Below, piece after piece: positions 29,864-40,217 of a stretch of 64,000 bases of DNA. The translations under genes were made by a program, and so were the position numbers. Origin of the DNA: Candidatus Oxydemutatoraceae bacterium (lineage in GTDB: Bacteria; Pseudomonadota; Gammaproteobacteria; Poriferisulfidales; Oxydemutatoraceae); NCBI GenBank assembly GCA_965220085.1, contig CBDCOZ010000003.1, positions 1,120,001 to 1,184,000 on the forward strand. Direction: 5' to 3'. The notes beneath the pieces are model-generated. The model did no database searches and was not told the origin of the DNA. It saw nothing but the letters and a program-made list of their open reading frames with translations. The stretch's first letter is position 1. Each line of letters begins with the position of its first letter.

Positions 29864-31180
29864 ATGAATACAAAACCTACAATTACAAAAAAGCGCTCAT
29901 CGGGTTGCTTGAGTTTGCTTGCGATATCCATGGCGCTGTTATCTGTGTTTGCAGATAACGCCATCGCGCGGTCGCACGATGAAGTAGCCGATCTGAAGCA
30001 ATCGATGCAGGAGTTGAAAAAGCAACTTGAAGCGATGCAAAACCGCTTAAGCGAGATAGACGATACGGTCTCTCAAAACAGCGCAGCGGTTGAAGCAACC
30101 GCGGATGCGGTGCAGGAGTACGCCGACAAGCCGTCTGCTTTTGACAGGCTGTCCATCGGGGGTTACGGCGAACTGCATTACAACAATTACGACGTTGAAA
30201 GCGGCGAAGACAAAAAAGAGTTGGACTTCCACCGGTTCGTTTTGTTCTTCGGGTATGATTTCAGCGAGCAGTTGAAATTCTTTTCCGAGTTTGAGTTAGA
30301 GCACGCTTTGGCCGGCGAAGGCAAGGGCGGCGAAGTGGAGCTGGAACAGGCTTTTGTCGAATACAGCTTTGATGACTATAACGCCGCCCGTGTCGGGGTC
30401 TTTTTGCTGCCGGTCGGCATCATGAACGAGACCCACGAGCCGCCGACATTTTATGGCGTTGAGCGCAACACGATTGAGAATGTCATCATTCCGGCAACCT
30501 GGTGGGCCGGCGGTGTCGGCTATACCCACAGGTGGGACAACGGCCTCAGCTTTGACATATCCCTGCACGAAGGATTGAAGGCAGACCCTGCCGACGGCAC
30601 CGCGCGCATCAGAGGCGGCAGACAGAAAAGCGCGGAGGCCGATGCGGATGATTTGGCTACGACGGCGAGGCTGAAATACACCGGCGCGCCCGGTTTGGAA
30701 TTAGCGGCATCGCTTCAGTATCAGTCGGACATCACGCAAGAGAGCGGCGACGGTCTTGACGATGCTTATCTGACGGAACTTCACGCGATATATCATCGCG
30801 GGCCGTTTGGTTTGCGCGCGCTCTATGCCCGCTGGGATATGGACACCGAAGATGTCCCCGCGACGACGGCGGATGCCGATGGGAATGCCGTCGCGAACCC
30901 CGCTTTGGGAATCGAAACAAACGGCTATGACGAGCAAGAAGGTTGGTATGTTGAGCCGTCCTTCAGAATGTCCGATGCGTTCGGCGTATTTGCCCGCTAC
31001 GAAGATGTCGAAGGCGGGCGTTCGCGAGACGAGTTTGATCAGTGGATTGTCGGTTTTAACTATTGGCTGCATGAGGATGTGGTTCTCAAGGCCGACTATC
31101 TGGAGCGCGAACACGATAACGCCGCCGACAAAGGGAGAGACTTTGACGGTTTTAACCTCGGCTTCGGTTATCAATTCTGA
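29864..31180 (+). CDS. Outer membrane porin with N-terminal coiled coil (probably iron-regulated)
   Basis: Signal peptide, GGYGELHY, HRFVLFFG, NETHEPPTFYGVER, C-terminal GYQF. Confidence 0.8.
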   Translation: MNTKPTITKKRSSGCLSLLAISMALLSVFADNAIARSHDEVADLKQSMQELKKQLEAMQNRLSEIDDTVSQNSAAVEATADAVQEYADKPSAFDRLSIGGYGELHYNNYDVESGEDKKELDFHRFVLFFGYDFSEQLKFFSEFELEHALAGEGKGGEVELEQAFVEYSFDDYNAARVGVFLLPVGIMNETHEPPTFYGVERNTIENVIIPATWWAGGVGYTHRWDNGLSFDISLHEGLKADPADGTARIRGGRQKSAEADADDLATTARLKYTGAPGLELAASLQYQSDITQESGDGLDDAYLTELHAIYHRGPFGLRALYARWDMDTEDVPATTADADGNAVANPALGIETNGYDEQEGWYVEPSFRMSDAFGVFARYEDVEGGRSRDEFDQWIVGFNYWLHEDVVLKADYLEREHDNAADKGRDFDGFNLGFGYQF

Positions 31181-36872: not shown

Positions 36873-37516
36873 TCGCTATCCAACTTTTTGAGATGGGGGC
36901 TGTGGTCTTCTGGCCGCAGTCGTTTTTTTACAACTGAATAATAGCCAAGGAATCGGAAAGTGTGATGCTTTCCGGTTTTATCAATTCACAAAAAATAAAG
37001 TCAAATTATTGTTTACGCAAAATAATCTTAAACATCTTTGAGATTGCTTAAGGTTATATGGTCAAGCAATTAAGTGCATATGGTGGATGCCTTGGCAGCA
37101 GAAGGCGATGAAGGACGTGGTAGTCTGCGATATGCTTCGGGGAGCTGACAAACGAGCTTTGATCCGGAGATTTCCGAATGGGGAAACCCGCCCGCTCCGG
37201 CGGGCATTTGCACCTGAATACATAGGGTGTAAAAGCAAACCTGGAGAACTGAAACATCTAAGTATCCAGAGGAAAAGAAATCAATTGAGATTCCCTTAGT
37301 AGCGGCGAGCGAACGGGGAACAGCCTTGCGCTCTTTAGCATTTTGTCTAGTAAAACGGTTTGGAAAGACCGGCCATAGTGGGTGATAGCCCCGTATATGA
37401 AAGACAGCTTGTGGAACTAAGTGCGCGACAAGTAGGGCGGGACACGTGAAATCCTGTTTGAACATGGGGGGACCATCCTCTAAGGCTAAATACTAACTGC
37501 TGACCGATAGTGAACC

Positions 37517-37547
<31 letters not shown>

Positions 37548-38230
37548 GGAAGGGGAGTGAAATAGTACCTGAAACCGTATGCATACAAGCAGTGGGAGCC
37601 GACTTCGGTTGGTGACCGCGTACCTTTTGTATAATGGGTCAGTGACTTGTTTTCAGTGGCAAGCTTAACTCCGAATATGAGGGAGGCGTAGGGAAACCGA
37701 GTCTTAAATGGGCGTCTAGTCGCTGGGAGCAGACCCGAAACCGGGCGATCTAGCCATGGCCAGGGTGAAGGTAAGGTAACACTTACTGGAGGCCCGAACC
37801 CACCTATGTTGAAAAATGGGGGGATGAGCTGTGGCTAGGAGTGAAAGGCTAAACAAGCCCGGAGATAGCTGGTTCTCCCCGAAATCTATTTAGGTAGAGC
37901 CTTGTGTTATTCACTTCAGGGGGTAGAGCACTGTTATGGCTAGGGGGTCGTCAAGACTTACCAAACCATGGCAAACTCCGAATACCTGAAAGTGCTATCA
38001 CAGGAGACACACGGCGGGTGCTAAGGTCCGTCGTGGAAAGGGAAACAGCCCAGACCGTCAGCTAAGGTCCTTAAATTATGGCTCAGTGGGAAACGATGTG
38101 GGAAGGCATAGACAGCTAGGAGGTTGGCTTAGAAGCAGCCATCCTTTAAAGAAAGCGTAATAGCTCACTAGTCGAGTCGGCCCGCGCGGAAAATGTAACG
38201 GGGCTCAAGCCATATACCGAAGCTACGGCT

Positions 38231-38469
38231 ACAGAAGGCAGACTTAATTTCATTACACTTATTTAATAGGAGGTAATACTATGGCAAAACATCCAAAGAG
38301 TGCGCCAAAAAATGCACCATCTAAAAACCCTGGTAAACCATCAGGGGGAGGACGGGGTAACAATCCCCCGCGCCAAAATCCTAATAAAAAGTAACATATG
38401 TGCTGCCAGAAGTGGTTTTCTAATTACTTCTGGTTAGCCATGCAATGTGAAATTAAGTCTGTCTTCTGT
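38231..38469 (+). other. Intervening sequence in 23S helix 45
   Basis: AT-rich insert between CCGAAGCTACGGCT and GGGGTAGGGGAGCG; 22-bp terminal stem 38231-38252 / 38448-38469. Confidence 0.9.
38281..38394 (+). CDS. 37-aa basic Pro/Gly/Asn-rich peptide encoded in the IVS
   Basis: AGGAGGT 6 nt before ATG; MAKHPKSAPKNAPSKNPGKPSGGGRGNNPPRQNPNKK. Confidence 0.65.
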   Translation: MAKHPKSAPKNAPSKNPGKPSGGGRGNNPPRQNPNKK

Positions 38470-39096
38470 GGGGTAGGGGAGCGTTCTGTACGTCGCTGAA
38501 GGTGTGCTGTAAGGCATGCTGGAGACATCAGAAGTGAGAATGCTGACATGAGTAACGATAATGCGGGTGCGAAACCCGCACGCCGAAAACCCAAGGTTTC
38601 CTGTGCAACGTTAATCGGCGCAGGGTGAGTCGGTCCCTAAGGCGAGGTCGAAAGGCGTAGTCGATGGGAAACAGGTTAATATTCCTGTACTTCGCATTAT
38701 TGCGATGGGGAGACGGAGAAGGCTAGGTCATCCGGGCGATGGTTGTCCCGGTGCAAGTAAGTAGGGAGTGCTCTTTGGAAAATCCGGGAGCGCAATTCCG
38801 AGATACGATGCGGAGTTCCTTTTGGAGCGAAGTGACCGGTGCCATGCTTCCAGGAAAATCCTCTAAGCTTCAGATAATGCGGAACCGTACCGCAAACCGA
38901 CACAGGTGGGTAGGGAGAGAATCCTAAGGCGCTTGAGATAACTCGGGTGAAGGAACTAGGCAAAATAGCACCGTAACTTCGGGAGAAGGTGTGCCAATTC
39001 GGGTGAATGGACTTGCTCCAGGAGCTTGGGTTGGTTGCAATAACCAGGTGGCTGCGACTGTTTACTAAAAACACAGCACTCTGCTAACTCGCAAGA

Positions 39097-39135
<39 letters not shown>

Positions 39136-39178
39136 TAAATGATGGGGTTAGCTTCGGCGAAGCTCCGGATTGAAGCCT

Positions 39179-39262
<84 letters not shown>

Positions 39263-39524
39263 CGATGGCCATACTGTCTCCACCCGAGACTCAGTGAAAT
39301 TGAAATCGCTGTTAAGATGCAGCGTCCCCACGGCTAGACGGAAAGACCCCGTGAACCTTTACTACAGCTTTACACTGAACTTTGGACATATCTGTGTAGG
39401 ATAGGTGGGAGGCTTTGAAGCCGAGACGTCAGTTTCGGCGGAGCCAACCTTGAAATACCACCCTGATATGCTCGGAGTTCTAACCCAGACCCGTTATCCG
39501 GGCCGGGAACAATGTATGGTGGGT

Positions 39525-39566
<42 letters not shown>

Positions 39567-39690
39567 TACAAAGGTGTCCTGAGCACGGACGGAAATCGTG
39601 CGGTCAGTATAAAGGCATAAGGACGCTTGACTGCGAGACAGACACGTCGAGCAGGTGCGAAAGCAGGTCTTAGTGATCCGGTGGTTCTGC

Positions 39691-39744
<54 letters not shown>

Positions 39745-39773
39745 ACTGCCCAAGAGTTCATATCGACGGCAGT

Positions 39774-39851
<78 letters not shown>

Positions 39852-40217
39852 TGGTACGCGAGCTGGGTTTAGAACGTCGTGAGACAGTTCGGTCCCTATC
39901 TACCGTGGGCGTTTGAGACTTGAAGGAAGCTGCTCCTAGTACGAGAGGACCGGAGTGGACGTACCTCTGGTGTTCCGGTTGTCACGCCAGTGGCATTGCC
40001 GGGTAGCTATGTATGGACAGGATAACTGCTGAAAGCATCTAAGCGGGAAGCCTGACCTGAGATGAGGTCTCACCGGGGCTTCGGCCCCCTGAAGAACCCT
40101 TGAAGAAGACGAGGTTGATAGGCTGGGTGTGGAAGCGCAGTAATGCGTGTAGCTAACCAGTACTAATTGTTCGTGAGGCTTGACCTATAACACTTAAGCA
40201 AGTTTTGGAAGCAAGTT

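Follow-up and report, generated by a model that had tools for sequence, protein, structure and literature searches.

A helix-45 intervening sequence in the 23S rRNA gene of an Oxydemutatoraceae bacterium contains an open reading frame related to a widespread micropeptide family

The window, as the whole 64-kb stretch of DNA analysed here is called, contains a 23S rRNA gene whose position, together with those of the other features, is given in Table 1. It belongs to a 2.49-Mb genome in three contigs, which is 99% complete and has a G+C content of 55.8%. A blastn search showed that rrl occurs only once in this genome. The 16S and 5S rRNA genes are also single-copy and lie on the same contig, and none of the three genes is linked to another. 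No Rfam family other than 23S rRNA was found in the 64-kb window, 5S rRNA included, and no tRNA gene was found around the 23S gene between window positions 30000 and 45000. The 23S gene lacks about 30 positions of the Rfam model near 273-305 (window about 37385-37395), so that a helix of domain I is shortened or missing. The genome also encodes a protein with an RNase III domain at G000:C3:1204978-1205325 (L205), in an open frame of 233 aa that matches PF14622 with 104.5 bits (cut-off 35). This gene is on the same strand as the lone 5S rRNA gene, which it follows at a distance of about 840 nt.

Table 1. Coordinates of the features and family loci discussed in the text (window positions unless a genome coordinate or locus name is given)
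Feature	Position	Strand	Remarks
23S rRNA gene	37060..40187	+	Rfam RF02541, 2885 bits, model 1-2925, full-length bacterial LSU rRNA
23S rRNA gene in genome coordinates	G000:C3:1157060-1160187		same as window 37060-40187
Intervening sequence (IVS) including both stem arms	38229..38471	+	243 nt, replaces helix 45; G+C 0.407, against 0.524 in the rest of 23S
Closing stem, 5' arm	38229..38253	+	presumed RNase III substrate; MFE and centroid folds; unpaired probability 0.02
Closing stem, 3' arm	38447..38471	+	same folds; also a 22-nt inverted self-match, 95%
Shine-Dalgarno (SD) sequence AGGAGGT	38268..38274	+	15 nt beyond the stem top, 6 nt before ATG
37-codon ORF plus TAA	38281..38394	+	ATG 38281, TAA 38392-38394; MAKHPKSAPKNAPSKNPGKPSGGGRGNNPPRQNPNKK; 'NPG' variant of the micropeptide family
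12-bp hairpin after the stop codon	38406..38417 with 38422..38433	+	core of a 20-bp structure at 38397-42
5S rRNA gene	C3:1204021-1204136		single-copy
16S rRNA gene	C3:1848049-1849607	minus	single-copy
SKNPGKPS sub-type loci	L114-L125, L127, L129-L133, L155, L169		metagenome scan
Tail-fusion loci	L139 (= L194), L142, L158, L159, L171, L176, L178, L183, L186
Peptide gene paired with a 500-665-aa protein gene	L046, L084, L110 and seven other loci		Replic_Relax domain in L084 and L110

Alignment to the covariance model placed about 215 extra nucleotides in the terminal loop of an 8-bp hairpin at model positions 1206-1226, which we take to be helix 45. In an alignment with E. coli rrl, the flanks matched up to about nt 1169 and from about nt 1174. 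The position is consistent with helix 45 being the site named for the Coxiella IVS (PMC4990558). The predicted fold of the insert has a minimum free energy of -95.7 kcal/mol (z = -8.76), which was equalled by none of 200 shuffles, and its two arms form a closing stem of 25 bp, three of them G-U pairs, around a loop of 193 nt. The Rfam model, the E. coli alignment and the fold thus agree with a preliminary description of this DNA in placing an insert with a long closing stem in helix 45. The stem of 22 bp given there is present as the core of the longer stem, so that its length alone needed correction, and the 12-bp 3' hairpin was recovered within a longer structure. This hairpin is followed by no T-run, and consensus scans of the insert showed neither a terminator-like site nor an internal promoter.

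Extra sequence at the tip of helix 45, a long closing stem, a host RNase III gene and a sporadic distribution (described below) were all found. The insert therefore appears to behave as a helix-45 IVS of the RNase III type, with excision itself presumed. It seems quite improbable that the stem-loop instead remains part of the mature 23S rRNA and extends helix 45 at the surface, in which case the ORF would not be a message. Ribosomes of E. coli do tolerate unprocessed Salmonella IVSs (Gregory et al. 1996, cited in PMC8708148), but a near-perfect duplex of this length is a typical RNase III substrate in a genome that has rnc, and the known helix-45 IVSs described in PMC4990558 and PMC8708148 are excised. 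According to the same two accounts, excision of IVSs by RNase III does no harm to ribosomes.

The insert is unlikely to be an assembly join, since a single 408-nt contig from a public run bridges both junctions at even depth. This contig spans 38153-38560 with zero differences at a depth of 36.7, the flanking pieces having depths of 36-40; only one public run, which is not recorded as RNA, contains the sequence, and since this run may be the source of the assembly itself, the independent support is weak. No joint without the IVS was found at the insert's own boundaries in that one run. The lone joint that skips the region (38170 to 38530) has a depth of 2, comes from a single contig and probably stems from another organism.

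The loop contains a complete cassette, in which an A/U-rich leader is followed by a consensus ribosome-binding site, the 37-codon ORF and the 3' hairpin. The perfect ribosome-binding site was found as described, and so was the ORF, which has the same sense as the rRNA and a translation identical to the peptide given beforehand. In a first-order Markov simulation of the 193-nt loop, an ATG-started ORF of at least 37 codons arose in 1507 of 20000 sequences, and one that also had AGGAG or GGAGG 5-10 nt upstream in only 15. The predicted unpaired probability of the SD sequence is 0.24, since an A/U-rich stretch at the 3' end of the ORF pairs weakly with it. In this fold, positions 38258-38273 (the SD region) pair with 38373-38388, which are the last codons of the ORF (AAUCCUAAUAAAAAG) and code for a tail that is atypical of the family. 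The predicted pairing could be a means of translational control or a chance A/U-rich helix.

The peptide has a mass of 3.8 kDa and a pI of 12.0, with nine lysine and arginine residues, no aspartate or glutamate, eight prolines, six asparagines and five glycines. An AlphaFold model based on an alignment of 83 sequences had a pLDDT of 67 and contained no DSSP elements. A basic and disordered product had been proposed from the sequence alone, and both properties are borne out at the level of prediction. So is the view that the cargo is not a four-helix-bundle protein of the S23p type, as a Pfam search returned no family at E <= 10 and the model is free of helices. Searches of Pfam, NCBIfam, PHROGs and PADLOC with the peptide and its relatives gave no family, and a profile search of the PDB gave chance matches only (E >= 1.1). 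In the ESM Atlas, relatives were found in unnamed 'hypothetical protein' clusters and none among the named clusters. By tblastn, in which the low-complexity filter of BLAST deprives a negative result of its weight, no match was found for the window peptide or one relative (P0005) in GenBank phages, nor for P0005 in the PLSDB plasmids.

A phmmer search of 1.84 billion representative proteins with the 37-aa peptide gave one match, P0001 (E 4.9e-4, 69% identity), a 52-aa protein with two copies of a core motif. When P0001 was used as query, 254 proteins of 28-91 aa were obtained at E <= 10 from 397 candidates. All of the 60 sequences that were read contained N[AG]PS[KT]TGx[PK]SGGGRGNNPP with a short basic tail after it, and the core of the family can be written as N[AG]PS[KT]TGxPSGGGRGNNPP, which is near-invariant. 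An alignment of 40 sequences had 12 invariant columns, and the window peptide keeps the residue in every one of them. It also has the layout of the family, being a short ORF with the core near the C-terminus and a short basic tail. It departs at a nearly invariant threonine, where it reads SKNPGKPS instead of SKTGKPS (an asparagine plus an extra proline). The same variant was found in 16 of 146 distinct family sequences and, judged from the sequences, is a recurrent sub-type and not a sign of decay. After the terminal PP, the window peptide continues for seven residues (RQNPNKK). Most relatives end two to four residues past PP and some are longer, and the first residue of the tail is lysine or arginine in 114 of the 146.

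When one genome from each of 185,579 species was scanned with the back-translated core motif, 426 matches were obtained, 311 of which were confirmed by tblastn. Metagenome contigs gave at least 595 matches, at least 262 of them confirmed, and viral contigs gave 13 confirmed stretches in 11 loci. Homologues of the peptide are thus present elsewhere, in 311 confirmed genome places and at least 262 metagenome places. The loci compared below number 171, namely 80 listed from the 311 confirmed in genomes, 80 listed from metagenomes and the 11 viral ones. By record title, the 80 listed genome loci come from Gamma- and Alphaproteobacteria, Burkholderiales, Chloroflexota/Dehalococcoidia, Bacteroidota, Ignavibacteriaceae, Planctomycetales, Myxococcota, Campylobacterota, Clostridiales, Acidobacteriota, Gemmatimonadota and Sumerlaeota. 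Three of the 80 are archaeal (Thermoplasmatota, Methanoplasma and a closed Nitrosopumilus chromosome). The motif lies in a short ORF that ends soon after it in 79 of the 80 listed genome loci, and in 76 of these the ORF starts with ATG, mostly with an SD sequence in those phyla that use one. Four motif strings were searched for in the open literature (subscription journals lie outside this scope) and were mentioned nowhere; within that scope, the family appears to be undescribed, and it has no annotation.

Within the search pattern, codon differences between family members were synonymous in 75360 cases and non-synonymous in 2774, a comparison that is circular, since the pattern fixes the residues. 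Outside the pattern, an asparagine is kept in 123 of 125 sequences, a proline in 123 of 125 and a serine in 122 of 125, the serine being encoded by both AGY and TCN codons. The two prolines that follow the pattern are kept in 141 and 138 of 146 sequences, with all four proline codons used at both, and all six arginine codons are used freely in the family. Because synonymous codons vary freely at conserved residues that the pattern does not fix, the conservation is judged to be at the level of the protein and not of the RNA. The expectation that homologous IVSs would preserve the frame had no direct counterpart, as no homologous IVS was found; what stood was that the frame is conserved in the free-standing homologues. 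On this sequence evidence, the ORF is a real coding sequence and not a chance frame, because it is homologous to a large family under protein-level selection.

An artefact of one kind or another (a chance frame, a family that consists of mis-called rRNA, or a chimeric assembly) is effectively refuted. Ribosomal RNA is often mis-annotated as protein (PMC3203614), and weak E-values like those obtained here are typical of short low-complexity peptides. However, blastn with the window 23S gene placed none of the 171 listed family loci in an rRNA gene. Four of the 171 match the window 23S, within the ORF only, and none shows 23S similarity outside the ORF core, whereas four gammaproteobacterial 23S genes used as positive controls were matched over their whole length. 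A cmscan of 40 of the 171 loci likewise detected no rRNA. The rarity of an SD sequence plus ORF in the simulations, the turnover of synonymous codons at conserved residues and the contig across both junctions speak against the same explanation. The rRNA-borne copy is thus unique so far among the 171 listed loci; the ORF of the window lies inside rrl and is not a free-standing gene.

Several variations on the family plan were observed. Two tandem copies of the core occur in a single peptide of 44-56 aa in P0001-P0012, L096, L161 and L182, and two adjacent peptide genes lie on one contig at L131:1762-2156. Several family proteins come from contigs about 3.2 kb long. At the tail-fusion loci of Table 1, which are marine metagenome and viral contigs, the motif is the C-terminal tail of a larger protein that has a domain of about 70 aa in one or two copies. 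This domain has weak Pfam matches to ThiS, SAMP2 and UBX-like (beta-grasp) families, with E-values from 1e-4 to 0.03.

The genes next to the free-standing family members were variable. The nearest upstream gene is on the plus strand at 37 loci and on the minus strand at 37, and the nearest downstream gene is on the minus strand (convergent) at 44 and on the plus strand (co-directional) at 33, a near-random orientation implying that the family gene is usually monocistronic. It often has its own hairpin. About 100 of the 143 nearest neighbours match nothing in Pfam at E <= 1e-5. The others include HsdM and Eco57I-type methylases, GmrSD, IS110 and IS4/5 transposases, Replic_Relax proteins, YagK/YfjJ, HTH regulators and ordinary metabolic genes. 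NCBIfam and PADLOC searches gave nothing solid. The family thus looks as if it sits in variable and partly mobile regions of genomes, and these regions indicate no functional partner. A role as leader or arrest peptide was considered and is not favoured, given the 44 convergent and 33 co-directional downstream genes and a tail of varying length. A role as RiPP precursor is not favoured either, as no modifying enzyme recurs among the 143 nearest neighbours.

In Chloroflexota/Dehalococcoidia metagenome-assembled genomes, about 120 nt separate a peptide gene (N-terminus MTQTPRMRGKGG...) from a downstream gene for a protein of 500-665 aa. The pair occurs more than once per genome (L035 and L107; L059 and L084), suggesting that it may be a repeated mobile unit. 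Two RNA motifs were seen at 4 of the 40 loci scanned: in one lineage (L048:1772-1840, L135:728-796, L138:1565-1633), the peptide gene is followed after 77 nt by the DUF805 motif (RF03081), and in another (L136:1204-1236), it is preceded, at a distance of 22 nt, by the DUF805b motif (RF02914).

The distribution of the insert was examined by several searches. In 60 relatives, nothing matched the insert DNA. When the 23S flanks were used as query, a match was obtained in 31 of the 52 other genomes of the order, 30 of them with both flanks, separated by 1-24 unaligned nt compared to 243 in the window. One further genome of the 52 matched the 5' flank only, and 21 gave no 23S match, presumably because rRNA was not assembled. 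The distance between two anchors was 251 nt in the window and 22-32 nt in 16 loci of relatives; the anchors were located in 17 of 29 such loci, one of which (L008) was mis-anchored and also ends in a 32-nt hairpin, and the other 12, on the opposite strand, were left out of the measurement. In the 399 further genomes of the class that were scored, no real match was found, seven of them having only matches of 19-38 nt (E >= 4e-4). Blastn of the IVS against plasmids gave only one 28-nt chance match, and in the collections searched the insert showed no similarity to the ORF-less IVSs of Salmonella, Yersinia and Campylobacter.

The G+C content of the insert is 40.7% and the GC3 of its ORF 0.289, compared to 52.4% G+C in the rest of the 23S gene and 55.8% in the genome. 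Because the insert is absent from the relatives and low in G+C and GC3, its sequence points to a lineage-specific acquisition from an A+T-rich donor, which was probably recent. Neither a second copy of the motif nor a donor copy was found within the host genome, and the 171 listed family loci revealed neither a donor nor homologues of the stem, the leader or the hairpin. DNA similarity between the insert and these loci is confined to IVS nt 33-168 (the ORF being nt 53-166), lies mostly in nt 77-150 and reaches at most 85% identity. Two other kinds of element were considered and rejected. A miniature inverted-repeat transposable element does not fit a single copy in the genome and family loci without flanking inverted repeats. 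A gene-in-a-hairpin cassette does not apply to the free-standing family genes, which no long inverted repeats enclose: the best flanking helix at family loci reached 14.5 (13.5 in the shuffle control of the same locus) compared to 23.5 for the window.

Taken together, these results are best explained, with a probability that we put at roughly 0.55, by a helix-45 IVS of the kind excised by RNase III, the loop of which is a complete small-gene cassette that was obtained by horizontal transfer from a widespread family of micropeptide genes, which are otherwise free-standing. RNase III would cut within the 25-bp stem of the precursor 23S rRNA, leaving 23S pieces of about 1169 nt (~1.17 kb) and about 1716 nt (~1.72 kb) and releasing an RNA of about 200-240 nt with its ends still paired. 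Since the SD sequence starts 15 nt and the ATG 28 nt beyond the stem, both should survive the cut wherever exactly it is made. The released RNA, or the nascent precursor, could then serve as a mini-mRNA, one per 23S transcript. As rrl is single-copy, the ORF is part of every 23S transcript, in keeping with the proposal in the preliminary description that the message would be made in stoichiometry with ribosome synthesis. Points against this explanation are the predicted ensemble, in which the SD sequence is mostly paired, the single occurrence in one genome, the seven-residue tail and the precedent of Coxiella.

The main uncertainty is whether the ORF is used in the host or is a young passenger. 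We consider it doubtful, although distinctly possible, that the insert is a neutral or selfish recent insertion, the ORF of which is undecayed for lack of time, with a short-lived RNA and little peptide made. As the GC3 is 0.29, against a genome G+C of 0.558, and the insert looks recent, the ORF may be intact because it is young and not because the host has selected for it; the low GC3 suggests a recent, possibly passive, acquisition. The single occurrence, a base composition unadjusted to the host, the predicted pairing of the SD sequence and the precedent of Coxiella, whose S23p protein is probably not made and whose IVS RNA is short-lived (PMC4990558), all favour such a passenger. On the other hand, the perfect AGGAGGT has ideal spacing and lies outside the stem, unlike that of Coxiella, and all of the family-invariant residues have been kept. 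Moreover, the genome has no other copy of the family, so that any use of the peptide must come from the IVS copy. These points against a passenger leave room for a recent arrival.

The function of the peptide can be considered from its composition. Our best guess from the sequences is that this very basic and presumably disordered peptide binds a target conserved in bacteria and archaea, most plausibly RNA or the ribosome. This guess is based on the composition, on the invariant 19-residue core and on the G/R/K-rich extensions of relatives. The G/R/K/S-rich extensions, which are present at the N-terminus of some relatives, would fit nucleic-acid or ribosome binding, and 19 fixed residues in a peptide modelled as disordered suggest that it may bind a very conserved target in an extended form. 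Nothing ties the family to the ribosome, the neighbours elsewhere being variable. A bolder version of the mechanism, which we regard as unlikely, is that a pan-prokaryotic peptide acting on RNA or the ribosome has had its gene built into an rRNA gene of this symbiont. One transcript would then yield both 23S rRNA and an RNase III-excised, stem-protected mini-mRNA, and production of the peptide would keep pace with that of ribosomes. The 19 invariant residues would suit a target that bacteria and archaea have in common, and if this version were true, an rRNA gene would also be a protein-coding gene.

The finding would matter in several ways. What IVSs do and whether their ORFs are expressed is an old question, for which the best-studied case, that of Coxiella, points to a decaying and silent ORF (PMC4990558). 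The insert described here is the cleanest candidate for a translated IVS known to us, having strongly selected relatives and a consensus ribosome-binding site that is expected to survive processing, and it shows that the cargo of IVSs is not confined to S23p. It also exposes a family whose 19-residue core hardly varies between members from many bacterial phyla and some archaea. As members are present in culturable genera (Myxococcus, Marinobacter, Vibrio, Acidovorax and Oceanospirillum), their function is testable at the bench.

A short ORF with an SD sequence within 23S rRNA has a reported precedent. In 1996, Tenson, DeBlasio and Mankin are said to have described a pentapeptide mini-gene in E. 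coli 23S rRNA ('E-peptide'), with an SD sequence and a short ORF, which is reportedly translatable from rRNA fragments and whose product acts on the ribosome. By these accounts, the E-peptide is native rRNA sequence of five codons and is active only when rRNA fragments are over-expressed. The present ORF is like it in combining an SD sequence and a short frame within 23S, but unlike it in being foreign DNA from a protein family; the E-peptide stretch itself is presumably not kept as an ORF in the 23S gene of the window.

The insert also resembles the ORF-less IVSs in helix 45 and helix 25 of Salmonella, Yersinia and Campylobacter, which are stem-loops at a helix tip with a sporadic occurrence among relatives (PMC8708148, PMC2801512). 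Those elements are described as being about 100-200 nt long and as causing RNase III-dependent fragmentation, with no known cost (PMC8708148, PMC2801512), and they lack a conserved coding sequence.

The closest likeness is to the S23p (PF05635) IVS of Coxiella burnetii and pathogenic Leptospira, which shares the same 23S site, a long stem, an ORF in the rRNA sense, horizontal acquisition and a cargo family with further members outside rRNA genes (PMC4990558). According to that account, the Coxiella IVS is excised by RNase III, its RNA is degraded quickly, and its protein was made in vitro only with an engineered ribosome-binding site and is probably not made by the organism (PMC4990558). The cargo is different, however, being here a 37-aa, predicted-disordered peptide that has no Pfam family, whereas the S23p protein has about 120 aa; the insert is 243 nt long, compared to 428 nt in Coxiella; and its stem arms contain no heptamer repeats, unlike those of the S23p-type IVS as described for Coxiella and Leptospira (PMC4990558). 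Furthermore, the SD sequence here is a consensus one that lies beyond the stem, whereas the weak SD sequence of Coxiella is removed by the cut and its ORF is decaying (PMC4990558). Judged from its sequence, the insert is thus a known kind of element, an RNase III-type IVS, that carries a new cargo.
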